This document shows, one piece after another, positions 4,201 to 17,036 of a stretch of DNA of 64,000 nt. The position numbers and the translations under genes were made by a program. Under the pieces are notes generated by a model. The model was not told where the DNA came from, made no database searches, and saw only the letters and a program-made list of their open reading frames with translations. Positions within the stretch are counted from its first letter, which is position 1. Each line of letters starts with the position of its first letter. This DNA comes from Desulfobacula sp. (lineage in GTDB: Bacteria > Desulfobacterota > Desulfobacteria > Desulfobacterales > Desulfobacteraceae). The stretch is taken from contig NZ_JABZFL010000015.1 in NCBI RefSeq assembly GCF_014237455.1, positions 4,403 to 68,402 on the forward strand, given 5' to 3'.

Positions 4201-4457
4201 TTCTTCTGACCTCGGTGACAACGGTTGCAGGTCTTTTCCCGCTTCTTCTGGAAACCAGTTTTCAGGCACAGTTTTTAATTCCAATGGCAGTCAGTATCAG
4301 TTTCGGTCTGATGGCAGCCACTGTTTTAACCCTTGTTTTTGTCCCGTCTTTGTATGTGGTTATCAATGATACGGTAGGGATTTTTATTGCCGGAGATGAT
4401 GAAACTGCATTTAATGAAATCAAATCATCAATACCCCAGGGGAAAAATAGAGATTAA
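1218..4457 (+). CDS. RND efflux permease (AcrB/AcrD/AcrF family)
   Basis: 1079 aa, two large periplasmic loops, TM4 motif 'GILVDDAIIVGEN', 'GIVVNDALILID' and 'RFRPVLLTSVTT'. Confidence 0.95.
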   Translation: MKALGKWSVEHRVSVNLIMVFLIVAGLYTVLTMKREMFPQFSLDMINISVTYPGASPEEVEEGICIKIEEQLKSLEDVKTMYSTALEGHGSLTLELAAGTDINEKLDEIRTEIDLIDTFPDQAEEPVIIEIKNNDPAIYLAIYGDVDEKVLRDTAERIRDDLVDTDDISLASLIGVRDYEISIEVSEENLRRFNLSFEQVAIAVKTGSLDLPGGKIKTKGGEFLVRTKGKLYTGEEFEQIPVVTREDGTTIKLGDVATVIDGFEDTDIKARFNGKPAALVVVRRTDSQDTIAISKTVKEYIKTHKDSLPKGITLGYWFDMAEMVQDRIDLLLKNGVQGILLVFIVLALFLDLGLAFWVASGIPISFMGAFLVLNYFGASINMLSLFGFIMTLGILVDDAIIVGENVYTHYKTGKSAKEAVIDSVAQIGAPVVMAVTTTIVAFTPLMHIEGIMGKFIFIMPQTVICILAFSLIEAFVILPAHLDHALTPPKKNKSLIYRICFFWLEWLKKDILDGHGWVRDRIESVLTVVIRSIYTPVLKYCVKNRYFTLAMGFGILIVSIGVLAGGHVPFVFFPKTDSNWIVSEIIYPLGTPFEATEKTIKQIEKGAFELNAFFRDRVAGGDDLIVNNFSQVGVIPRRDWKPGVYGGHCGEAWIEIQSASKRPDIPAPEVTAKWRELTGDILGAEQLTFSIIGGGPGGNPIEIQLKGKDLDQLELAADELKQEIEKYPGTFDITDTFRPGKMEKRIHIKKGAKSLGITMADIATQIRQAYYGDEALKIQRGKDDIKVMVRYSQKERESEASIDALRIRTRDGRQVPLNQVADIEMKRGYSTIQRVDRKRIITVISDINEDIANAREIVEDLKKNYLDTLVNRFPGVTYDLEGQAKRTEESIDSLKLGFSLAGMIIFLLLASQFRSYIQPVIIMTAIPFGLIGAIAGHYFMNLDITMISIFGIVALSGIVVNDALILIDFINSKVRKGIPVFDAVIEAGQNRFRPVLLTSVTTVAGLFPLLLETSFQAQFLIPMAVSISFGLMAATVLTLVFVPSLYVVINDTVGIFIAGDDETAFNEIKSSIPQGKNRD

Positions 4458-4467
4458 GATCAGCAAA

Positions 4468-5337
4468 ATGGATAATATATTTAATAAAAATTTTTGGCTC
4501 AACGAGTGGGAAAAAGATAAAAAGAGTGATACTTACAGCGTTCATAAGGGGTTTTCCACCCGGGAATACTGGGACAGTGCGGCTGCTACATACAATCAGA
4601 ATAAAAAAGAAATTAAGGGCCGCCGGCTTAAAAAGACAATGTCGTTTTTTAAAAAAAGTGGTCTTCTGTTTGACGGAATGACTGTCCTTGAAATCGGATG
4701 CGGAACTGGAATGGTTGCAATAGAGTTGGCAAAACACGGCGCACAGGTGACAGCCCTTGATTTTTCAAAGGGGATGCTGGAACAATTTAAACAGGGTATC
4801 ACGCCTGATATAAAAAAAAACATCACTGTTCTTCATGAAGACTGGTATAAAATAGATAGTGAAAAAAAAGGATGGAAAAAGAAATTCGATCTTGTCATTG
4901 CCTTTATGTCTCCGGGAGTTGCAAGCCCGGAATCCTTTTTTAAAATGATGAGCTGTTCAAAAAAAGGATGTGCTATCCGGGGATGGGCCGCAAAAAGAAA
5001 TCACCCGATTCTGTCTGATTTATGGGAAAAAATTGTGGGAACAGTTCTTGAAGACAAGCCACAGAGTATTTTATATAAAATAAATCTCTTGTTTTCTTTG
5101 GGCTTTTTCCCGGAGATTACCTTTGATGCAATTGAATGGGACCAGACAGTTTCGATTAAAGAAGAATTTGACAGCCAAATGGCTTTTTTTAAAAAAGTGA
5201 GCAAACAAACTGATACTGAGCTTGAAAAAATTATTCGTCCTTATCTTGAGAGCATGTCGAAAGACAATTATATTGTCAGGAAGCATAAAGGCTTGACAGC
5301 CACGGCAGTCTGGGAGATGGATTCACGATACCCTTAA
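4468..5337 (+). CDS. Class I SAM-dependent methyltransferase
   Basis: Motif I 'VLEIGCGTG', motif II 'VTALDFSKGML', 'FDLVIA'. Start placed at ATG 4468 to avoid overlap with the permease. Confidence 0.85.
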   Translation: MDNIFNKNFWLNEWEKDKKSDTYSVHKGFSTREYWDSAAATYNQNKKEIKGRRLKKTMSFFKKSGLLFDGMTVLEIGCGTGMVAIELAKHGAQVTALDFSKGMLEQFKQGITPDIKKNITVLHEDWYKIDSEKKGWKKKFDLVIAFMSPGVASPESFFKMMSCSKKGCAIRGWAAKRNHPILSDLWEKIVGTVLEDKPQSILYKINLLFSLGFFPEITFDAIEWDQTVSIKEEFDSQMAFFKKVSKQTDTELEKIIRPYLESMSKDNYIVRKHKGLTATAVWEMDSRYP

Positions 5338-6168
5338 ATCAAATATCGGCAGCCTGTCTTCACCCAGTTTTTCTTTTTTGATTCCCAATGCAGCACCCAG
5401 GATTTGTGTAAAAAGGACCGGAGTGATATGGTGTTTTTGGCATTCATTTTGAAATGACAAATCAGTATATTGTATCTGGCAATGGGTACAGGCAGTACAA
5501 ATATGGTCTGCCCCCGATTCTAATGCGGCGTTTAATTTGGAATTCAGTATTTTTAAAGACAGGTTTTTATTGGTTTCATAAATGGGATTTCCGCAGCACT
5601 CAGTGCTTTTTGACCATTCAACGGTCTTAAATCCGGTGATATTTATCAGTTCTTCAAAAATTTGGGGTGCGTGCGGATTATCAAATCCGGTGATAGTAAA
5701 TGGCCTCAACGCGTGACAGCCGTATTGGGTGACAATTTTCTTTTCAGGCAGTTTATGATTAATTTTCTTTTTAATTTCAAGAACGCCAATGTCGTCATAA
5801 AGAAACGAAAGAAGGTGCTTGATTTTTGTTTTTCCGTCCCAGAAAAGATTTTCATCTGCAAGAAGGCAATCCATTTTTTGTTTTAATTCTTTATTTTCAT
5901 GCCATTGGTAAGAGGCGTATTTGAGTTGCCCGAAACAGCATTTACAGGGGGTGATGATATCCAGATCATATTTTCGGGCCAGGGCAAAATTTCTTATGGA
6001 AGAGAAAACAGAAACTTCAAAACTGGTGCTCCGGGCAGGATAACCGCAGCAATTGAATGGAAGTTGAACCAGGTCCACGCCCAGTTTTTCCATTAAAGAT
6101 TTAAAAGAGGTGTCATAGTCTTTTAAATAAAAATTTATTTTACATCCCGGGAAATATGCAAGTTTCAT
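5323..6168 (-). CDS. HdrB-like CCG-domain Fe-S protein (heterodisulfide reductase subunit B family)
   Basis: Two CCG domains: YFPGC...NCCGYP...PCKCC and QYGCH...ECCGNP...ACTHC. Confidence 0.9.
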   Translation of the reverse strand: MKLAYFPGCKINFYLKDYDTSFKSLMEKLGVDLVQLPFNCCGYPARSTSFEVSVFSSIRNFALARKYDLDIITPCKCCFGQLKYASYQWHENKELKQKMDCLLADENLFWDGKTKIKHLLSFLYDDIGVLEIKKKINHKLPEKKIVTQYGCHALRPFTITGFDNPHAPQIFEELINITGFKTVEWSKSTECCGNPIYETNKNLSLKILNSKLNAALESGADHICTACTHCQIQYTDLSFQNECQKHHITPVLFTQILGAALGIKKEKLGEDRLPIFDLRVS

Positions 6169-7781
6169 AATGTGTTCGCCTTATCCGCTGTGGTCATGAT
6201 TTTTAACCTTTCAGCTGTCTGGTTTGAGATGTTTCGGAGTTCTATAATGATATCTGCAACTTTTATCTCACTGGGACAATGCTCCTGGCATAAATAACAG
6301 GTCAGGCAGTTCCAGACCATCCGGGTTTCTGCAGCCGTCTGTTTTTTTCCCAGCCTTAACAGGTTCATGATTTGCTGGGGTGTCATGTCGTTATCGTTTC
6401 CACTATAAGCAACGACGGGGCAGACATTGGTGCAAATGGTACACTGAACACAATTTTCAAAAGAATAAACACGGCCGGTAAGATTTTGGGTCAAGCCATA
6501 TGTTCCGGCGGCCCGATCTTTTTCCAACTCTTTATTTCCCCAGTCCTGAAGTGCCTTGTCTTTTACAAAGGTATAATTATCCGGATACCCCATTTTATGC
6601 AGTGTTTTCGGAAGTGTTTTCCATAATCCCTGAAGGTCAATTCCCGACGGACAGATATTTGTACAATTATTGCACATTGTACACTCATCATTGCCAAGCT
6701 GAAGCTGATTCAGCGCTTCCGGGTTCAGATGTCCCGTAAATATCATTTTTCTGGCAGATTCGATTTTGGAATGGGGCAGGATCTGTTTATTCCCTGTGAT
6801 TAGAAAGTTTGGATAAACACTGCAGACCTCAGAACAGATACCGCAGTTTGTGCATGCAGCAAAGGTTGCCGGGTGAATGAATACCGCTTCTTTTTGAAAG
6901 TGTTTGTTCGTCACTTTATGCTGTGCACTTGCAAACGGAATCAATAACATATGGAAAAATCGTGAAAAAGGAAGACTGATCAGCATTAAAAATGAAAGCA
7001 GGTAGTGAATCGGATACAGCCAGTTGTCTGCACGGTAATGGTTTAAAAAATTTGCAGGTTTTCCAAGATGCGTGGCAAATGCCTTTGATACAAAGGCACT
7101 ATTTATTTTTGAGTGACAGTCAAGGCAGTAGTCATTGTTTAAACGTCTGCCTTGTTCAAGTGCATCTTCGGTAATGAGGAGCGTTTCTTTAAATACAACA
7201 TGATAATTTTTTTCCCAGTAAATTTTCAGGTGATCAAGGTCTGTGCCCTCATCCAGATCGGAATAGTCTTCAACCATTTCTAAAAACGCAGGTTCTGAGA
7301 TGATTTTTACCGTTTCAAGCATAAACCCTGAACCAATCACCAAAAGGATCAGGATAATGGAAAAAATTCCTTTATATTTTAATTTGTTATCCGGCTTGAT
7401 TCGAGTATTGAAACTTCTTCTAAACAAAAATCCAATACATCCGGCCAGTACCAGAAAACCGGCAAAATTTCTCAGGAATTGAAAGGGATCAAGAGTGGGT
7501 TGATAGTATTGAAACAGGTTAAATGCAGTCAATTCGTCCAAAGCATGGAAAAAAACCAGATAGCTAAAACCGGATAACACAAGAAAATGAACTGCCCACC
7601 TTGTTTTTGATGCGCGAAACAGTTTTGATTGAAAAATCGTGTTGAAAAGGACCAGCTTTAAATTTAAACTCAATTTTAATTTCGGGACCCCTGAGGCACC
7701 TTTTTTTTGAAACCGGTAAACCTGAAATAAAAGACCTGCTGTTGACAGGATTAATGATGTATATAAAGTAATTTGAAACAT
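6165..7781 (-). CDS. Membrane NarI/HmeC-like cytochrome fused to two HdrC-like 2x[4Fe-4S] domains, with one CxxCH motif
   Basis: Hydrophobic N-terminal half with His-containing helices (WAVHFLVL; IHYLL...RFFHMLL), CLDCH at 7113-7127, four ferredoxin motifs (CTNCGICSEVC, CTMCNNCTNICP, CVQCTICTNVCP, CLTCYLCQEHCP). Confidence 0.8.
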   Translation of the reverse strand: MFQITLYTSLILSTAGLLFQVYRFQKKGASGVPKLKLSLNLKLVLFNTIFQSKLFRASKTRWAVHFLVLSGFSYLVFFHALDELTAFNLFQYYQPTLDPFQFLRNFAGFLVLAGCIGFLFRRSFNTRIKPDNKLKYKGIFSIILILLVIGSGFMLETVKIISEPAFLEMVEDYSDLDEGTDLDHLKIYWEKNYHVVFKETLLITEDALEQGRRLNNDYCLDCHSKINSAFVSKAFATHLGKPANFLNHYRADNWLYPIHYLLSFLMLISLPFSRFFHMLLIPFASAQHKVTNKHFQKEAVFIHPATFAACTNCGICSEVCSVYPNFLITGNKQILPHSKIESARKMIFTGHLNPEALNQLQLGNDECTMCNNCTNICPSGIDLQGLWKTLPKTLHKMGYPDNYTFVKDKALQDWGNKELEKDRAAGTYGLTQNLTGRVYSFENCVQCTICTNVCPVVAYSGNDNDMTPQQIMNLLRLGKKQTAAETRMVWNCLTCYLCQEHCPSEIKVADIIIELRNISNQTAERLKIMTTADKANTL

Positions 7782-9064
7782 CAGTGTCCTGTTGTGCTTT
7801 TTTTATAAAAATCATTAACCGCTGTAAATGCGCTTAAGGCCGAGACTCCGGAACCTGATTTGAGTCTGACCCAGTCATTGTGGGCAAGAATTGTCCCAAT
7901 GGCATAAAGATTTTCATAAATAATAGCGCCATGTGTATCCACCGGCCTGAAAACACTGTCTGTTTCCACGCCTGCCGTGTTAATCAGGTGTCCCTGTTTT
8001 TCAAAAAAATCAAGGTGATGCCAAAGGCTTCTTTCGTCTGGCTGATAAACCGGCAGGTTGAATACGGTTTCCTGTATACGTCCTCTTTGGGCATGGAGTC
8101 CTCCTCCCGGGAATCTTCCCGTGGCAAGAATACCCCCCCTGGATCTTATTTGAGTTTCCATATTCTGATTCATTACATCTAAAACAAATTCAGATCCGTT
8201 AAATCGCGGTGGCTTGATTTTTGCCTGACTCAAAAAATGAACCTTATTTTTGGCCAGTTTTTTTTCAAATGCATTTTTCAGTCGTAACCCTGGAATGGAA
8301 GGCGGCATCATCGGAATTTCAAATATATCAAGACCGGTCATTTTTTCCAGACGGGTCAGTGCCTCAAGGCTTTTATTTACACCGCATACTGCAGGTATCC
8401 CCATCAGTTCAACTTTATCCAGGAAAGGAGAAATCTGTGTGGCAAGCTCTTTGAGAAAGGAAGAATCTTCAAACAGTGTTGCCAAATGTGTTGGATTTAA
8501 ATCGCCATTTTTTCCCGGAACCTCCACACTTAACGTAAGAATATTGGGATAGTTCTTTTTTAAAATATCCGCTATTTGTCTGGCACAAAACCCCTTTAGC
8601 CCTTTAAAGTCTACAAGCAATAAGTTTGTATCATTTTTAAGCAGACGGCTTTTTGAAATGGTTTCAGGAATCATACAGGTTGGTTTGAACGTACCGGCAG
8701 AGGTGAGAACAGATCTGTTCCCTTTCTCTGGTTTAATATAATTAAGTCCGGCTGATTGTAAAAACCGGGTTAAAAAATCAAAACTTTTCAATATGGCTTC
8801 CAGGCTGGTCTTTGAATACGGATGTCCGGGCATTTCTTTTTGCAATAAGCTCAGGCCTGTTAGAGGGTCCTGCAAGACTGTTCGTGAATGAAGCGGATAG
8901 ACACCCAGAAAATCAAACAAACCGCTTGCAAAATAAAGGTGTGATGAATTACCCGTCTGAACCGTTTTCAAGCCGAGAGCAGAAGCGCGAGCCGCAGCAA
9001 CCATGCCTGCAAAACCGGCCCCAATCACTGTTATGTCACATGTGATATATTTTTTATCTTTCAT
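7781..9064 (-). CDS. glpB: Anaerobic glycerol-3-phosphate dehydrogenase subunit B
   Basis: FAD motif 'VIGAGFAG', 'FEIPMMPPSIPGLRL', 'ILATGRFPGGGL', 'SGSGVS'; downstream of glpA. Confidence 0.9.
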   Translation of the reverse strand: MKDKKYITCDITVIGAGFAGMVAAARASALGLKTVQTGNSSHLYFASGLFDFLGVYPLHSRTVLQDPLTGLSLLQKEMPGHPYSKTSLEAILKSFDFLTRFLQSAGLNYIKPEKGNRSVLTSAGTFKPTCMIPETISKSRLLKNDTNLLLVDFKGLKGFCARQIADILKKNYPNILTLSVEVPGKNGDLNPTHLATLFEDSSFLKELATQISPFLDKVELMGIPAVCGVNKSLEALTRLEKMTGLDIFEIPMMPPSIPGLRLKNAFEKKLAKNKVHFLSQAKIKPPRFNGSEFVLDVMNQNMETQIRSRGGILATGRFPGGGLHAQRGRIQETVFNLPVYQPDERSLWHHLDFFEKQGHLINTAGVETDSVFRPVDTHGAIIYENLYAIGTILAHNDWVRLKSGSGVSALSAFTAVNDFYKKSTTGH

Positions 9065-10671
9065 TTTTTAACAAGTTCAAGGCCGAATAAGCCGCAATGT
9101 ATCATTTCCTTTAAAGAGGACTGAACAAGTGCCTGGCCCCATAACAAGGATTGTTCCCCTTTCCATCGTTCATTTAAAAAATATTTCAGATCGTTTATAC
9201 CGGTTTGATCCATAATTTCCCCCCTGGCATAGAGATGTGACAGTATCCGCATGCTGCAAAAAGCCCCCTGGCAGGGCCCCTTTCCAATCCTGGTTCTAAG
9301 GGCAATGGATGAAAGGTCAGGTTTTCCACCATTTTTTTTAATTGAATCAATCACTGTATTTATCGCACTGGCCGGAACCATTTCACATTCGCAGAGAAAA
9401 GGGTCTTCCAGCGTATCGGGTTTGAACGGATCATTGACCAGAACCCCCGGTTCCGACCATTCTCCGCTATGGGTGGATGGCAATGGGATCATTTTTGTCC
9501 GGCATTCCACTGAAACTTGATGTTTTTTACAGACAATATCAGATGTCTTTTCTGCCATTAACCGGTATGTAGACAGTTTGCCCCCTGTAATTGTGATAAG
9601 ATTATTCACCTGGTCTTTTTCATGATCCAGCAGGGTAAATCCTCGGCTCACATCTCTGTCATTGTCTTTTCCCATGCTGACCAGGGGTCTTACACCTGCA
9701 TATGCCCGGATATACCGGCAGGTTTTCAGTTCAGGTATCATTTTTTCACCCTCACTGATAATATAATCCACTTCTTTGACCGTGGGATAGATGTTGTCCG
9801 GGGACTTGATTCTTACGGAAGTGGTTCCAAGGATTGAAACAACGCCGCCCGGAACCAGAATATCTCCATCAGTGGGTTTTCTCAGGCGGTTAATCGCTCT
9901 TTTTGTGATTCGTTTACTTGTGACCAGAAGACTTCCCTTGGAAAAAACCATATTGATGTGAATCCCGGCCATGGCAGCAATGCTTCCGGCCCACGCTCCG
10001 GTTGCATTGACATAGGTTTTTGCTTTTATTTTATGGGTTTTGCCGCTGATTTGATTTCGAACCCGGGCATAAACGATGGCCTTGTTTTCAATCTTGAACG
10101 CTTCAATCCGGGTGTGGCTGAGGTAGCAGGCCCCTCTGGAAACGGCATCGTTTATATTTTCAATGGACAGTTTAAACGGGTTAATGGAAGCATCATTCAC
10201 TTTATACACAGCGATTGTTTCATCCGACAATGACGGTTCCATTTCCCGGGCTTCTTTCGGATCTATCTTTTCAGATGGAATTCCGTATTTTTTACACATA
10301 TCAGGAAAATCAGCAATGTAATTTTCTTTATCTCCCTTAACAGCAACAAACAGTCCCCCGGTTTCCTCGATGCAATGGCCGACATTTTTTTTTAATATTT
10401 CCGATTCAGTACTGCACTCAACCGCTGCCTCGGGGTCAGAACAGACATATCTGGCACCACTGTGCAAAAGGCCGTGATTCCCACCGGATGCACCGGCATT
10501 CAGGTCGCTTTTTTCAATCAGAATCACGTTGAGCCCTCTAAGTGTCAGGTCTCTGGCAATCCCGGTGCCTGTCACGCCCCCGCCTATGATTAATACATCT
10601 GTTTCCACAATATCGTCTCCAGTTGCAACCAGAAAGGGTGTTTTTACTGGATGTTGGTTTTTAAAATTCAA
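9061..10671 (-). CDS. glpA: Anaerobic glycerol-3-phosphate dehydrogenase subunit A
   Basis: 'IIGGGVTGTGIARD', 'GASGGNHGLLHSGARY', 'ITGGKLSTYRLMAE', C-terminal BFD-like CECE...RIGKGPCQG..C. Start codon uncertain (TTG). Confidence 0.93.
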   Translation of the reverse strand: MNFKNQHPVKTPFLVATGDDIVETDVLIIGGGVTGTGIARDLTLRGLNVILIEKSDLNAGASGGNHGLLHSGARYVCSDPEAAVECSTESEILKKNVGHCIEETGGLFVAVKGDKENYIADFPDMCKKYGIPSEKIDPKEAREMEPSLSDETIAVYKVNDASINPFKLSIENINDAVSRGACYLSHTRIEAFKIENKAIVYARVRNQISGKTHKIKAKTYVNATGAWAGSIAAMAGIHINMVFSKGSLLVTSKRITKRAINRLRKPTDGDILVPGGVVSILGTTSVRIKSPDNIYPTVKEVDYIISEGEKMIPELKTCRYIRAYAGVRPLVSMGKDNDRDVSRGFTLLDHEKDQVNNLITITGGKLSTYRLMAEKTSDIVCKKHQVSVECRTKMIPLPSTHSGEWSEPGVLVNDPFKPDTLEDPFLCECEMVPASAINTVIDSIKKNGGKPDLSSIALRTRIGKGPCQGAFCSMRILSHLYARGEIMDQTGINDLKYFLNERWKGEQSLLWGQALVQSSLKEMIHCGLFGLELVKK

Positions 10672-10700: not shown

Positions 10701-10751
10701 TTTTATTGTTTTTATATATTTTTTATTGTTTTTTTACAAGTTTTATTGTTT
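10701..10751. promoter_or_regulatory. Three direct repeats TTTTATTGTTT at exact 20-bp period in the glpA/DeoR divergent promoter (candidate operator)
   Basis: Copies start at 10701, 10721 and 10741. Confidence 0.5.
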
Positions 10752-10828: not shown

Positions 10829-11602
10829 ATGGCCCAGACTTTAATACCGGTTGACAGGCAGGCGCGGATCCAGAAATTGATTGAAGAAAAAGGGATTGTA
10901 AGGGTTTCCGAGTTAAGCAAATTGTTTGGTGTGACGGAACTGACCATCCGTCGGGATTTTGATGTGTTGGAAAAAAGGGGGGTGCTGGAACGAACCCATG
11001 GGGGGGCTATTTTGCGCCGCCGTTTAAAAGTCGAACCCCTTTATGTGGAAAAAAACCAGAAACACCGGACACAGAAAGAAAAAATAGGCATTGCCGTCGC
11101 CAAGATCATTGAGCCCGGCGATACACTTCTTATCAACACCGGTTCTACTAACACACAGGTTTTAAGACATTTGTCAGGGAAAAATCTTCGTGTCATTACC
11201 AGTAATGCAAATGCCCTTACGGAAATTGAGAATCCTGAAATTGAGGTGGTTTTAACCGGTGGACTGTTCCGCAGGCAATCAAACTCTTTGATTGGAAATT
11301 TTACCCATACCCTGCTTAAAAATGTCTGCGGCAGCAAGGCCATTATCGGTGTTGACGGGGTCAGCATAAGATTCGGCTTGACAACCCCTATTCAGGAAGA
11401 AGCCGCAGTGGCTCGCCTGATGATTGATCAGACGCTGGGTCCGGTTATTGTAGTTGCCGACAGCAGCAAGATGGGCGTGGTATCAAATTTTGTGACAGCG
11501 TCCATAGATAAGGTCAATATCCTGGTTACTGATGCAGGAATCAAGACAGGCGTTAAAAAAGAACTGGAGGAAATGGGTATAACCGTTATTATTGCAAAAT
11601 AA
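10829..11602 (+). CDS. DeoR/GlpR family transcriptional regulator
   Basis: HTH 'VSELSKLFGVTELTIRRDF', 'RTHGGA', sugar-phosphate sensor domain 'INTGSTN...VITSN...LTGG'. Confidence 0.93.
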   Translation: MAQTLIPVDRQARIQKLIEEKGIVRVSELSKLFGVTELTIRRDFDVLEKRGVLERTHGGAILRRRLKVEPLYVEKNQKHRTQKEKIGIAVAKIIEPGDTLLINTGSTNTQVLRHLSGKNLRVITSNANALTEIENPEIEVVLTGGLFRRQSNSLIGNFTHTLLKNVCGSKAIIGVDGVSIRFGLTTPIQEEAAVARLMIDQTLGPVIVVADSSKMGVVSNFVTASIDKVNILVTDAGIKTGVKKELEEMGITVIIAK

Positions 11603-11659: not shown

Positions 11660-12757
11660 TCAGTAAATCACCTGGGTGGTTTTGGCATCAAACAAATGCA
11701 TTTCATTGAGGTTCATGCCCAGATTAATTTCTTCATTTGTCCTGACAATCTTCCTCCCTTCACTTCTTGATAAAACTTTAATACCCATAATATCCACATG
11801 AAGCTGGGTTTCATTTCCCAATGGTTCAACAACCATGACATTGGCGCTAAATATCCAGTCTTCAGGAAGCTGTGTATGGCTATTTATGGGTGTGATCTCC
11901 TCTGCCCGAAGTCCGAAGACAACTTTTTGATCATGAACCAGCTGGATTCCTTCTTTATCTGGAACAGGAATCTTGAGCCCATCTTCAAACTGGACAAAGG
12001 TTTGATTCTTGTCTTTATTGATTTTGCAGTCAACAAGATTCATGGGAGGGGTGCCGATAAATCCTGCGACAAATGTATTTGCAGGGTTTGAAAAAAGTTC
12101 AATGGGGGTGCCGACCTGTTCAATGTACCCATCCCTGAGGACAACGATCCGATCAGCCAGGGTCATGGCTTCCACCTGGTCATGGGTCACATAAATCATA
12201 GTGGAGTTAACCCTCTGGTGCAGCATTTTTATTTCCGCTCTCATCTGGATACGAAGCTTGGCATCCAGGTTTGACAAGGGTTCATCAAAAAGAAAAATGG
12301 AAGGTTTTCTGACCATGGCCCGACCCATGGCCACCCGTTGCCGCTGGCCACCGGAAAGTTCATGGGGTTTTCTAAACAGCAGGTCTTCAAGACCCAGAAT
12401 AAGCCCAACTTCCTCAACTCTTTGCTTGATCTCTTTTTTGGGCGTTTTCATCAATGTTAACCCAAAGGACATATTATCAAACACATTCATATGGGGATAA
12501 AGCGCGTAATTCTGAAACACCATGGCAAGGCCCCGGTCCTTTGGCGCAATATCATTGACTATTTTATCATCAATGGAAATCGTGCCATTGGTTATCTCCT
12601 CCAACCCTGCGACCATTCTAAGCAAGGTTGATTTACCGCACCCTGAAGGTCCGACAAGAACAATGAATTCTTTGTCCTTTATATCAAGGTTTAACTCATG
12701 GATTACCTCTATTTTACCATATTTTTTAATGACATCTTTGAATTTTAGCTCAGCCAT
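11660..12757 (-). CDS. ugpC: sn-glycerol-3-phosphate ABC transporter ATP-binding protein
   Basis: Walker [31 protein letters not shown], '[11 protein letters not shown]', TOBE tail; divergent from ugpBAE. Confidence 0.9.
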
Positions 12758-12986: not shown

Positions 12987-14315
12987 ATGAAATTATCGAA
13001 ATTGTTTGTATTTTTAGTTGTTGCAGTTTGTATTGCCTTCCCGGTTTCCGTTTTTGCCAAACCCGTTACCATTAACTGGTGGCATGCCATGAGAAGTGCA
13101 AGGGGTGAAGTGGTCAAGAACATGATCAATGAATTCAACGCATCTCAGTCAGAGTATGAAGTTGTCGGAACCAACAAAGGCAACTATGATGAAACAATGA
13201 ATGCCGGCGTTGCAGCCTTCAGGGCTAAAAAACAGCCCCATCTCCTCCAGGTTTTTGAAGTGGGAACCCAGACCATGATGCTTTCAGGAGCTATCTATCC
13301 GGTGTTTGAACTCATGAAGGATGCAGGCATTGATGTGGACTGGTCAAGATATCTTCAGGCGGTTCTTTCCTATTATATGAATGCCGACGGAAATCTCATG
13401 TCCATGCCGTTTAACTCTTCCACACCCATTATGTATTACAATGCAGATATGTTTAAAAAAGCAGGTATTGCGCCTTTATCAAAATCTGAACCCATTACCT
13501 GGGATGAACTGGGAGACATTACAAAAAAACTTGTCAGTACCGGAATTGCTTCGGCAGGTATGGTTACAGCTTGGCAGTCCTGGACCCAGATTGAAAATTA
13601 CAGCGCCATTCACAATGTTGCGTTTGCCAGCAAATCCAACGGATATGAGGGGCTTGACTGCCAGCTTGAAATTAATAATCCCCTGGTAGTAAAACATATC
13701 ACAAGACTTAAATCATGGGCAGATGACAAACGCTTCATGTATGGCGGACAAAAATACCAGGGCCCTAAATCAGAATTTATGGCTCAGAACGTGGCCATTT
13801 ATATTGATTCCATCAGCGGGATTGCAAAATTAAAAAAAGGAGTCAAGGATTTTAAATGGGATGCAGCACCTCTTCCAGTGGAAGCAGGCACAGCAAAACT
13901 CCAGAACTCTATCATTGGCGGGGCATCTCTATGGGTACTCAATGGTCACTCAAAAAAAGAATATAAGGGGGTTGCAGCTTTCTTAAAATTTCTGGCCGGA
14001 AATGAGATGCAGGAATACTGGCACAAGGAAACAGGATATTTCCCCATTACTATTGATGCCTATGAATCTTTGAAATCCAAAGGGTATTATAATACTGATC
14101 CCCTCCAGGAAGTGGGTATCAATCAGCTCAACCGGGCTATTCCCACTAAAATATCAAGAGGATTGAGGCTGGGCTATTTTGTTCAGATCAGAAACATTAT
14201 CAATGAAGAATTAGAGCTTGTCTGGAATGGGAAAAAATCTCCCAAGGAAGCTTTGGACAATGCAGCTGCAAGAAGTAATATCCAGTTGAGAACCTTTGAA
14301 AAAACCTATAAATAA
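12987..14315 (+). CDS. ugpB: sn-glycerol-3-phosphate ABC transporter substrate-binding protein
   Basis: Signal peptide, 'WWHAM', 'KGNYDET', 'QVFEVGTQTMM', 'SMPFNSSTPIMYYN', 'IIGGASLWV'. Confidence 0.92.
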   Translation: MKLSKLFVFLVVAVCIAFPVSVFAKPVTINWWHAMRSARGEVVKNMINEFNASQSEYEVVGTNKGNYDETMNAGVAAFRAKKQPHLLQVFEVGTQTMMLSGAIYPVFELMKDAGIDVDWSRYLQAVLSYYMNADGNLMSMPFNSSTPIMYYNADMFKKAGIAPLSKSEPITWDELGDITKKLVSTGIASAGMVTAWQSWTQIENYSAIHNVAFASKSNGYEGLDCQLEINNPLVVKHITRLKSWADDKRFMYGGQKYQGPKSEFMAQNVAIYIDSISGIAKLKKGVKDFKWDAAPLPVEAGTAKLQNSIIGGASLWVLNGHSKKEYKGVAAFLKFLAGNEMQEYWHKETGYFPITIDAYESLKSKGYYNTDPLQEVGINQLNRAIPTKISRGLRLGYFVQIRNIINEELELVWNGKKSPKEALDNAAARSNIQLRTFEKTYK

Positions 14316-14383
14316 GATGTACAAGGAGTCAGATAAATAGACTTGATATTTATCTGACTCCTTTTTTTGCCCTTGATAAAACC

Positions 14384-15274
14384 ATGATAAAACGCTCATT
14401 CTTCAAATCAAGATATTTGCCCTATCTGTTGATTTTTCCACAGATACTTGTCACCCTGACTTTTTTCTATTGGCCGGCTATCCAGGGGCTTTCCCAGTCT
14501 TTTCTTTTAAGTGATCCCTTTGGAAGACACTCTAAATTTGTATGGTTTTATAATTATATTGAACTTTTTACAGATCCCCTATATCTGAAATCGATTTTCA
14601 CCACTTTTTTTTTCAGCCTTGCTGTTGCCGCTGTTTCCTTATCCCTGGGACTTTTTATTGCCTCCATGGCCAATAGAGCACTGAAAGCAAAGGCATTGAC
14701 CAGAACCCTTCTTATCTGGCCCTATGCGGTAGCACCGGCAATCTCTGGGATTATGTGGCTTTTTCTGCTCCATCCTTCCTATGGCATTGTTGCCCTGGGC
14801 ATCAAAAAATGGCTGGGGGTTGACTGGAACCCGGTTCTCTATGGAAGCGATGCCATGGTAATGATTGTCATGGCCAGTGCCTGGAAGCAAGTCAGCTACA
14901 ACTTCGTGTTTTTTATGGCAGGTTTGCAGGCCGTACCCAAATCCCTGACTGAGGCCGCAGCCATTGATGGCGCAAGTCCCTTCAAAAGATTCTGGTATAT
15001 CACCTTTCCTTTGTTATCACCGACTTTTTTCTTTTTAACTGTGATGAATATTATTTATTCTTTTTTTGAAACATTTGGAATTATTCATACAGTGACCCAG
15101 GGGGGCCCTGGCGGTTCTACAAATATTCTGGTTTACAAGGTGTACCAGGATGGATTTGTGGGATTGAACTTAGGATCTTCCTCCGCCCAGTCGGTTGTGC
15201 TCATGTCTCTTATCATTGTTATTACTTTTCTTCAGTTCAGATTTCTCGAGAAAAAGGTACAGTATGGTGGATAA
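14384..15274 (+). CDS. ugpA: G3P ABC transporter permease
   Basis: EAA motif 'EAAAIDGASPFKRF', 'WKQVSYNFVFFMAGLQ', 'SSAQSVVLM'. Confidence 0.9.
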   Translation: MIKRSFFKSRYLPYLLIFPQILVTLTFFYWPAIQGLSQSFLLSDPFGRHSKFVWFYNYIELFTDPLYLKSIFTTFFFSLAVAAVSLSLGLFIASMANRALKAKALTRTLLIWPYAVAPAISGIMWLFLLHPSYGIVALGIKKWLGVDWNPVLYGSDAMVMIVMASAWKQVSYNFVFFMAGLQAVPKSLTEAAAIDGASPFKRFWYITFPLLSPTFFFLTVMNIIYSFFETFGIIHTVTQGGPGGSTNILVYKVYQDGFVGLNLGSSSAQSVVLMSLIIVITFLQFRFLEKKVQYGG

Positions 15275-15279
15275 ATATT

Positions 15280-16200
15280 ATGGTTGAAAAAACCCCGATA
15301 CTTGATTTTTTTACCTATGCATTTTTAATACTGGGAATATTTATAGTAGGATTTCCAATACTTTACAGCTTGATTGCGGCTACCCTGCCCCTGGAAGATG
15401 TAGTTAAAGTGCCCATGCCGCTTATCCCCGGGGATCAGTTTATTGTCAATATGAAAGAAGCCTGGTCAAGGGGAGATCTTGGAACCCAGATCTTAAATTC
15501 CGTTATTATGGCATCGGGTATAACCATTGGCAAAATTACCGTGTCCATGATCGGCGCTTTTTCAATTGTTTATTTTGATTACAAATTCAGGGTTTTGGCT
15601 TTTGCATCGGTTTTCTGTACTTTGATGCTGCCTGTGGAAGTCAGGATTCTTCCCACCTATGAAATGGCTGCCAATCTTCTGAATCCAATCCAGGCCCTGT
15701 GCGATTTTCTGCACCTGGATGGACTTTTGTCATGGTTTACTGGTAATGACATAACGATTGACCTCAATTGGAGTCTGCTTGACAGTCATACCGGACTCAT
15801 CTTACCCCTGGTGGCATCGGCAACCTGTACTTTTTTGTTCAGGCAGTTTTTCCTGACCGTTCCGGAAGAACTATGCGAGGCAGCAAAAATGGACGGGGCT
15901 TCTCCCATGACCTTTTTCAGGAAAATCCTTTTTCCCCTGTCCAAAACTAATATTGCCGCCCTTGTGGTCATTGAATTTGTATATGGGTATAATCAATACC
16001 TCTGGCCCCTGCTTGTTACGACCAACCCAAAAATGACAACGGCTGTCATCGGCCTTCAGAATCTTATACCCCAGGCAGATGATCTGCCCGAGTGGAATCT
16101 CGCCCTTGGCGCTGCCGTCCTTGTTATGCTGCCCCCTGTTCTGGTTGTACTGTTCATGCAAAGATGGTTTGTAAAAGGCCTGATTGAGAAAGAAAAATAG
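15280..16200 (+). CDS. ugpE: G3P ABC transporter permease
   Basis: 'TLMLPVEVRILPTY', 'FLFRQFFLTVPEELCEAAKMDGA', 'NQYLWPLL'. Confidence 0.9.
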   Translation: MVEKTPILDFFTYAFLILGIFIVGFPILYSLIAATLPLEDVVKVPMPLIPGDQFIVNMKEAWSRGDLGTQILNSVIMASGITIGKITVSMIGAFSIVYFDYKFRVLAFASVFCTLMLPVEVRILPTYEMAANLLNPIQALCDFLHLDGLLSWFTGNDITIDLNWSLLDSHTGLILPLVASATCTFLFRQFFLTVPEELCEAAKMDGASPMTFFRKILFPLSKTNIAALVVIEFVYGYNQYLWPLLVTTNPKMTTAVIGLQNLIPQADDLPEWNLALGAAVLVMLPPVLVVLFMQRWFVKGLIEKEK

Positions 16201-16244
16201 CATAGTTCAGACATTTGCCGCTATCTTTTCCGGAAAATAAAATA

Positions 16245-17036
16245 ATGATGAAATCAATAAAAGACTTTCCACAGGGAAAAAGATCTGCCATCACGTATCT
16301 GCTTACAGATATTGATGATACCATAACCCATAAAGGCAGAATACCGGCCTGTGCTTTTAAGGCCATGGAAGATCTTGACAAGGCCGGTATAAAGGTGATT
16401 CCCATCACGGGCAGACCTGGGGGATGGTGCGATCATATCGCCAGAATGTGGCCCGTTAAAGGTGTTGTCGGTGAAAACGGCGCATTTTATTTTGTTTATG
16501 ATATCCACACAAAAAAGATGATACGCAGATATTTCAAAACAGATCAGGAACGAGAACAGGATCAAATAAAACTGCTTGCTGTAAAACAAAGAATCCTGCG
16601 CTCAATTCCAGGCTGTGTGATCTCGGCTGATCAACCATACAGGGAGGCTGATCTTGCCATTGATTTTGCTGAAGATGTCCCTCCTCTTTCCCAAACTGAC
16701 ATTGACAGGATTGTTGACATGTTTGAACAATGCGGCGCAACCGCAAAAGTCAGTTCTATCCATGTGAACGGCTGGTTTGGTAGCTATGACAAGCTTTCCA
16801 TGACCAAAATAATGTTCAGGGAAGTATTTAAAACAGATCTGGACGTAATAAAGGAAAAGGTTGTCTTTGTCGGGGATTCTCCCAATGATGAACCCATGTT
16901 TGAATATTTCCCCAACTCAGTTGGTGTTGCCAATGTGCTTGAATTTTTTGACAGGCTTGCATTTAAACCTGCCTGGATAACAAAAGGAAAAGGAGGGATC
17001 GGATTTGCACAGCTGGCCAAAATTCTTGTCCCGTGA
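16245..17036 (+). CDS. HAD-IIB family hydrolase
   Basis: Motif I 'TDIDDT', 'ITGR', 'GENGA', 'FVGDSPNDEPMF'. Start placed at ATG 16245. Confidence 0.85.
   Translation: MMKSIKDFPQGKRSAITYLLTDIDDTITHKGRIPACAFKAMEDLDKAGIKVIPITGRPGGWCDHIARMWPVKGVVGENGAFYFVYDIHTKKMIRRYFKTDQEREQDQIKLLAVKQRILRSIPGCVISADQPYREADLAIDFAEDVPPLSQTDIDRIVDMFEQCGATAKVSSIHVNGWFGSYDKLSMTKIMFREVFKTDLDVIKEKVVFVGDSPNDEPMFEYFPNSVGVANVLEFFDRLAFKPAWITKGKGGIGFAQLAKILVP

Follow-up and report, generated by a model that had tools for sequence, protein, structure and literature searches.

By what route do electrons leave an anaerobic glycerol-3-phosphate (G3P) dehydrogenase in a genome that encodes GlpA and GlpB and lacks GlpC? The question is raised by a four-gene operon of a Desulfobacula species, located in a stretch of 64,000 nucleotides (nt) of contig NZ_JABZFL010000015.1 (hereafter the window, whose numbering is used throughout). 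Its genes, all on the minus strand, are glpA (10671..9061; 536 amino acids (aa), with a TTG start as called), which encodes the FAD-dependent catalytic subunit of the anaerobic G3P dehydrogenase; glpB (9064..7781; 427 aa), which encodes the second flavoprotein subunit; a gene for a 538-aa membrane Fe-S subunit (7781..6165); and a gene for a 281-aa HdrB-like subunit (6168..5323). A sequence-only reading of the same DNA had delimited these four open reading frames (ORFs), and each was recovered at the same coordinates. It had also proposed that the role of GlpC is split here between a NarI-type membrane cytochrome carrying four [4Fe-4S] motifs and a separate HdrB-like protein with two CCG domains, and this view is upheld by our analysis. 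With moderate confidence, we propose that the products of the four genes form a single respiratory G3P dehydrogenase bound to the membrane, namely a G3P:menaquinone oxidoreductase.

The two dehydrogenase subunits are assigned by equivalog models: GlpA, which matches Pfam DAO with an E-value of 1e-49, reaches 566.7 bits on TIGR03377 (cut-off 552.8), and GlpB scores 524.2 bits on NF003725 (cut-off 345) and 219.5 bits on TIGR03378 (cut-off 174). GlpA additionally shows a weak match to a BFD-like [2Fe-2S] domain over residues 427-476. Read directly, the junctions glpA/glpB, glpB/membrane gene and membrane gene/HdrB-like gene are ATGA, TGATG and ATGA, with overlaps of 4, 1 and 4 nt, such that the start of glpB overlaps the stop of glpA and the start of the HdrB-like gene overlaps the stop of the 538-aa gene. 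When one genome per species was scanned by pattern, 208 relatives of the 538-aa protein were recovered, and synteny was read from the best 80 loci. Among these, glpA and glpB lie directly upstream on the same strand in 60 of the 64 loci with enough upstream DNA, and in 68 of 69 an HdrB-like gene directly follows the membrane gene. In the three to four loci without glpAB the two-gene module stands alone, among unrelated neighbours that revealed no other partner. The arrangement is therefore neither a chance juxtaposition nor rare, and the overlapping junctions together with the conserved synteny suggest that the four genes are co-transcribed. The overlapping operon seen in the sequence-only reading stood up both to the synteny survey and to the HMM searches, in which GlpA and GlpB pass their cut-offs and the downstream proteins give a weak Nitrate_red_gam match, matches to dicluster domains and two CCG matches. 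Carriers of the module include Desulfobacterales, Desulfovibrionales (among them the cultured Desulfovibrio caledoniensis), Desulfarculaceae and several metagenome-assembled genomes (MAGs) of Spirochaetota/Leptospirales. The cultured Pseudodesulfovibrio piezophilus, whose genome is closed, has the order deoR, then glpA, glpB, the membrane protein gene, the CCG protein gene and glpK.

The 538-aa protein combines five predicted transmembrane (TM) helices with a loop domain predicted to be periplasmic and with two dicluster domains of ferredoxin type, whose 16 cysteines make up four [4Fe-4S] motifs. Its NarI-like TM domain (6939..7781, minus; residues 1-281) contains candidate bis-histidine ligands of two b haems, which hydropathy and the positive-inside rule assign to a proximal (H65 and H277) and a distal (H79 and H259) position. 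These four histidines, two each in TM2 and TM5 as in NarI, are retained in every homologue that covers them (32/32) and in 79-80 of the 80 loci. The spacing of 18 residues between those of TM5 equals that of H187 and H205 in NarI, and the family profile matches NarI TM5 with an E-value of ~7e-4. Direct similarity to Nitrate_red_gam (PF02665) is weak, in that the whole-protein score is 27.9 against 22.9, yet no single stretch passes. An AlphaFold2 model of the protein, with a predicted local confidence (pLDDT) of ~70-89 over the membrane part, has a single significant fold match in the PDB, namely Mycobacterium smegmatis EtfD/EMO (9OJN; Foldseek E-value 1e-5, probability 1.00), with NarI as the second hit (probability 0.99). 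The TM domain is akin to NarI in its histidine pattern and to EMO and NarI in fold, and it would hold two b haems.

The positive-inside rule further places the N-terminus outside and an acidic loop of ~100 aa between TM4 and TM5 in the periplasm. This predicted periplasmic loop contains a CxxCH motif (7113..7127, minus; C219-L-D-C222-H223), a candidate covalent attachment site for a haem c. All 32 homologues compared, with identities as low as 35%, contain the motif, as do 79 of 80 loci, the lone exception being a truncated fragment; in an exhaustive HMMER search, which yielded 212 clusters among 1.84 billion proteins, it was found in 61 of the 63 full-length representatives. Met169, in the same loop, is likewise invariant, as expected of a haem c with His/Met ligation. 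A model of the loop by itself is a confidently predicted helical domain (pLDDT 90.9) that has no PDB match (best E-value 5.6) and does not correspond to any known cytochrome c fold. The Desulfobacula genome encodes two CcsA-type cytochrome c maturation proteins, and maturation genes were detected in 12 of 14 module carriers, including 7 of 9 Spirochaetota MAGs. The protein thus combines a predicted periplasmic CxxCH with a maturation system in the same genome, as a c-type cytochrome does, and the CxxCH/Met169 domain probably holds a third, c-type haem beside the distal haem.

On the cytoplasmic side, the first dicluster domain (6639..6854, minus; residues 310-381) carries C310/313/316/320 and C367/370/373/377, all invariant, and is recognized by Pfam Fer4_7 and by the N-terminal ferredoxin region of the NCBIfam TmcB/HmcF-like models. 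The second (6264..6461, minus; residues 441-506, with C444/447/450/454 and C492/495/498/502) is HdrC-like, aligning with the HdrC chains 8RVV_C and 5ODC_C at E-values of ~4e-11, and at 9e-16 in a profile search. The 281-aa protein contains two Pfam CCG domains (6e-25), aligns over its full length with methanogen HdrB (8RVV_B, E-value 7e-41) and conserves all ten canonical HdrB cysteines (C9, C40, C41, C75, C78, C151, C191, C192, C227 and C230) in 74 of 74 sequences. Its score of 179 bits on the HdrB equivalog model TIGR03288 is nevertheless well below the cut-off of 345, and its partner is GlpAB rather than HdrA. An eleventh cysteine, C77, which forms a CKCC motif with its neighbours (5935..5946, minus; C75-K-C77-C78), is equally invariant (74/74). 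The equivalent position is glycine in HdrB (CNGC) and a site-blocking histidine in EMO. In the Desulfobacula genome itself the corresponding motif is CPHC in an EMO-like protein and CPSC in an ordinary HdrB-like protein, and CKCC recurs only in a sister module discussed below.

A protein above the GlpC cut-off was not found in this genome (3.48 Mb, 98% complete), the best score being 97.5 bits against 279.9. The GlpC models TIGR03379 and NF008369 give 49.6 bits on the 538-aa protein and 31.6 bits on the 281-aa protein, against cut-offs of ~279. The idea that the downstream pair is a plain GlpC equivalent was accordingly rejected, since both proteins score far below these cut-offs and GlpC has nothing that corresponds to the haem domain.

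These features can be assembled into a linear respiratory pathway. G3P would be imported by UgpBAEC or synthesized by GlpK, which is encoded elsewhere in the genome (on a contig other than that of the operon), and would be oxidized to dihydroxyacetone phosphate (DHAP) by GlpA and GlpB on the cytoplasmic side. The GlpC-type electron wire would be split and extended, with electrons from GlpAB entering the HdrB-like clusters and passing through the HdrC-like dicluster domain and then the other dicluster domain to the proximal haem b, from there to the distal haem b, and finally to menaquinone. The probable c haem at the periplasmic face could form part of a quinone site on that side (the P-side) or serve as a side exit. 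The closest characterized relative is EMO, an ETF:(methyl)menaquinone oxidoreductase studied in two species (S. aciditrophicus and M. smegmatis), in which the HdrB-like clusters transfer electrons only and are not catalytic, a histidine filling what is the substrate site in HdrB (bioRxiv 10.64898/2026.08.18.745454). Several observations favour an equivalent role here. The four TM histidines and the 16 plus 10 cluster cysteines are invariant; a potential ligand, Cys77, is invariant at the very position blocked by histidine in EMO; and the module occurs in four genomes devoid of dsrA. The genes of the futalosine pathway mqnA and mqnD are present in the Desulfobacula genome, and each of the seven genomes checked encodes MqnA/D or a MenA-like prenyltransferase that scores below threshold. 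A search for classical menA told little, since the gene is missing even from a cultured Desulfovibrio, for which reason mqnA/D were searched in its place. The reaction would also be exergonic, since G3P/DHAP has a potential of -190 mV against ~-80 mV for the quinone (values quoted in PMC13689815).

Several points weigh against the assignment as a G3P:menaquinone oxidoreductase. Exergonic quinone reduction on the cytoplasmic side (the N-side) does not need two membrane-spanning haems, and the conservation of CxxCH points to a role beyond simple anchoring. The HdrB-like subunit, which keeps every cysteine of catalytic HdrB, is closer to methanogen HdrB than to GlpC (E-value 8e-8 for the latter). 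Cys77 could be catalytic instead of blocking, for which reason its reading as a sign of a blocked HdrB-like site was downgraded to ambiguous. The proximity of a sister operon to dsrC leaves room for a thiol/disulfide function of the module family, and in the literature searched no biochemistry is reported for any member of the subfamily.

The foremost alternative, whose split between quinone and a DsrC-type acceptor had been put forward in the sequence-only reading, holds that one part of the G3P electrons goes to quinone via the haems and another to a thiol/disulfide acceptor, such as DsrC, at the non-cubane clusters of the HdrB-like subunit, while GlpAB docks on a ferredoxin domain. A similar proposal was made by Strittmatter et al. 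2009 (PMC2702500). The full-length likeness to HdrB with retention of all its cluster cysteines is in keeping with it, as is the presence of one dicluster domain more than in EMO or HdrDE, a possible junction. It also draws on genomic context. A sister operon in the same genome (G000:C109:37011-46780; loci L089 and L090) encodes a 586-aa paralogue of the membrane subunit with a CLDCH motif, a 340-aa HdrB-like protein with CKCC, a 934-aa HdrA2-like flavoprotein (807 bits) and two Fe-S proteins, and it ends ~1 kb upstream of the only dsrC of the genome. The same five-gene array followed by dsrC is seen in all three complete cases, which comprise this genome and two others (L092 and L099), and dsrA is found in 11 of 15 module carriers. 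To judge by its gene content, the sister operon seems to specify an HdrABC-like complex that is anchored in the membrane and tied to DsrC. The genomic tie of the module family to DsrC, then, runs via this HdrA-type complex and not via GlpAB: the dsrC gene lies on another contig than the glp operon. Moreover, dsrA is missing from four of the 15 carriers, among them a Spirochaetota genome whose near-closed assembly is one contig of 4.8 Mb, and therefore DsrC is not the general acceptor. EMO, which shares the domain logic, has a closed, non-catalytic site whose equivalent here is occupied by an invariant ligand-type residue, and the TIGR03288 score falls far under the level of HdrB proper. The DsrC-type branch is thus unsupported for the glp operon, although the occurrence of the same module type beside dsrC means that the idea is weakened only; we regard it as unlikely.

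A second alternative is that a b-b-c haem chain passes G3P electrons across the membrane to a periplasmic cytochrome c pool, as in a reversed miniature Tmc or Hmc complex, with menaquinone not being the main acceptor. This would account for the invariance of CxxCH and Met169 in a confidently folded predicted periplasmic domain, agrees with the distribution of the maturation genes noted above and fits the kinship of the first dicluster domain to the ferredoxin parts of TmcB and HmcF. However, the haem c is only a candidate, in a loop whose fold resembles no known cytochrome c; two module-bearing MAGs have no detected maturation gene; no gene for a periplasmic cytochrome is linked to the operon in the window or in P. 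piezophilus; and both NarI-type domains and EMO are quinone/quinol enzymes. We accordingly consider such export improbable. Still less credence is given to electron bifurcation, an extension of the GlpABC hypothesis of Schut et al. 2026 in which one electron would go exergonically to quinone via the module and the other endergonically to NAD+ at GlpB, for although it has been proposed for Escherichia coli GlpABC by analogy with purified FngABC (PMC13689815), GlpA and GlpB are bona fide family members and the module could supply the high-potential branch in a manner compatible with a G3P:menaquinone oxidoreductase, it is hypothetical even for E. coli by its authors' own statement (PMC13689815), profile searches with GlpB show no NAD-binding signature beyond the FAD fold, and nothing in the module bears on bifurcation.

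A broader proposition can be offered tentatively, and we ourselves incline to doubt it. The glp-linked and dsrC-linked modules may belong to an undescribed family of "membrane-anchored HdrBC" devices, with a b-b-c tri-haem arrangement, a His223/Met169-ligated haem c in a periplasmic domain of new fold, a first non-cubane cluster remodelled by CKCC, and swappable donors or acceptors (GlpAB in one case, an HdrA2-like flavoprotein with dsrC in the other). If true, a single device of this kind would connect cytoplasmic dehydrogenases with menaquinone, with the periplasmic cytochrome c pool and possibly with DsrC. The route by which electrons of sulfate reducers pass from donors of ~-190 mV, such as lactate and G3P, to the enzymes of sulfate reduction is still debated. 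The module offers a tractable case for this debate, as P. piezophilus and Desulfobacterium autotrophicum are cultured carriers in which glycerol or G3P would presumably be inducing.

The sequence-only reading had taken this route to be undescribed for G3P in sulfate reducers, which does not hold: it was described in 2009 (PMC2702500) and drawn in 2024 (PMC11505543). In D. autotrophicum HRM2, Strittmatter et al. 2009 (PMC2702500) defined HdrF as Hdr-like proteins with several TM helices and parts homologous to HdrC and HdrB, found two of them clustered with glpAB, one being encoded by two genes, and proposed electron flow from GlpAB-HdrF to quinone or Hdr. The Desulfobacula module answers to the same description, having TM helices, HdrC and HdrB parts and a cluster with glpAB (HdrF being clustered with glpAB or etfAB). 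The D. autotrophicum homologue P0093 (539 aa) is 46% identical to the 538-aa protein and is likely to be HdrF1, judging by architecture, organism and the description in the paper. For Pseudodesulfovibrio and further sulfate reducers, Fig. S8 of PMC11505543 depicts one cluster made up of glpK, a "heterodisulfide reductase-like protein", glpBA and glpR. The literature on G3P dehydrogenases nevertheless largely overlooks this variant: a 2025 survey states that bacterial glpA "consistently" co-occurs with glpB and glpC, and in a 2026 survey of 4,273 homologues those without GlpB or GlpC sit in a 3% remainder. The glpAB-module variant corrects both the notion that glpA always accompanies glpBC and the relegation of the exceptions to that remainder. 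The arrangement itself is hence already known; possibly new are the CxxCH/Met169 candidate haem c site, the invariant eleventh cysteine (CKCC) of the HdrB-like subunit, and the sister operon combining the module with an HdrA2-like protein and dsrC, none of which is mentioned in the literature searched.

Divergent from glpA is a gene for a DeoR/GlpR-family regulator (10829..11602, plus) with HTH_DeoR and DeoRC domains, which scores 162 bits on the haloarchaeal GlpR model and 178 bits on the AgaR model, both under the cut-off; a DeoR gene likewise lies upstream of glpA in many related loci as well as in P. piezophilus. The intergenic region between glpA and this gene contains three exact copies of AACAATAAAA at 20-bp spacing (10701..10750; no strand assigned). 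They make up three of the four copies in the window, for the whole of which 0.68 are expected, and the closest relatives (L001 and L002) keep two copies at the identical spacing. This array is probably an operator of GlpR/DeoR type. Scans for promoter and terminator consensus sequences gave the same counts as in shuffled sequence. Beyond the regulator lie the genes of a G3P ATP-binding cassette (ABC) importer: ugpC (11660-12757, minus; 495.7 bits against a cut-off of 432), followed by ugpB, ugpA and ugpE (12987-16200, plus), which score 443.9 (cut-off 411), 326.3 (just under the cut-off of 335) and 328 (cut-off 297), respectively. Directly after ugpE, a gene for a HAD-IIB family hydrolase (16215-17036, plus) may encode a phosphatase connected with the regulon of G3P or of glycerophosphodiesters. 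At the other end, the ORF of an S-adenosylmethionine (SAM)-dependent methyltransferase (4387-5337, plus), which gives a weak CpaM-like match (62 bits against 180), runs convergently with the HdrB-like gene, overlaps the 3' end of that gene by 15 nt and marks the end of the operon.

Two further observations emerged from the survey of relatives. Three single-chain proteins of ~711-716 aa (P0169, P0181 and P0257) unite a membrane domain bearing CxxCH with a dicluster domain and with two CCG motifs, and by this domain content are fused versions of the split module. Five MAGs labelled Spirochaetota or Leptospirales (loci L050, L056, L059, L071 and L058; genomes G081-G083, G086 and G087) carry the glpAB-module operon together with dsrA above the cut-off, and CcmF/CcmC were found in four of the five (all but G081). 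They represent lineages of spirochaete affiliation that possess a dissimilatory sulfite reductase.

GlpA and GlpB of the Desulfobacula operon are orthologous by equivalog models to those of E. coli GlpABC, and GlpC likewise has two cubane clusters and two CCG domains; unlike the module, however, GlpC is one soluble or peripheral polypeptide with neither TM helices nor haems. The TmcABCD and HmcABCDEF complexes of Desulfovibrio also bring together a c-type cytochrome, a NarI-type cytochrome b and a cytoplasmic HdrD-like CCG protein, but their cytochrome c is a separate multihaem subunit, they have no flavoprotein dehydrogenase attached, and the likeness to TmcB is slight, at 52.6 bits (cut-off 735). 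HdrDE of Methanosarcina and DsrMK from sulfate reducers similarly couple a dihaem cytochrome b of NarI type to a dicluster and CCG protein, and the HdrB-like subunit of the Desulfobacula module retains all ten cysteines of the HdrB set. Whereas HdrDE and DsrMK take electrons from a quinol or from methanophenazine to reduce a disulfide or trisulfide, the Desulfobacula module is fed by a dehydrogenase; it also differs in having the E and C parts fused and the B part separate, in its extra dicluster domain, in CxxCH and CKCC, and in scoring below the HdrB and HdrC equivalog cut-offs.

The closest counterparts in gene order are the GlpAB-HdrF1/F1' clusters of D. autotrophicum (PMC2702500), where glpAB is clustered with TM, HdrC-like and HdrB-like parts that in one case are split over two genes, and those of Pseudodesulfovibrio (PMC11505543), P. 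piezophilus having the identical four-gene order. They differ in being known from genome annotations only, and CxxCH, CKCC and the extra dicluster domain are unmentioned in the literature searched. The closest biochemically characterized counterpart is EMO/EtfD. It too conducts electrons from a cytoplasmic flavoprotein to menaquinone by means of a haem domain with five NarI-like TM helices, a dicluster domain of cubane clusters and a non-cubane domain resembling HdrB, and it too has a ligand-type residue inside the first CxxC (histidine in EMO, cysteine in the Desulfobacula module). The genome under study encodes such an enzyme in its own right: an etfB-etfA cluster (C78:54128-58035; L104) includes a gene for an EMO-like protein of 702 aa with TM helices, one dicluster domain, two CCG domains and CPHC, and without CxxCH, so that related membrane modules occur three times in this genome, each time with another donor. 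EMO is a single chain with one dicluster domain, ETF as donor and no CxxCH loop. The glp-linked module shares its fold but is neither single-chain nor etfAB-linked: it is distributed over two genes, adds a second, HdrC-like dicluster domain and a predicted periplasmic CxxCH domain of ~100 aa, and has GlpAB as its partner.

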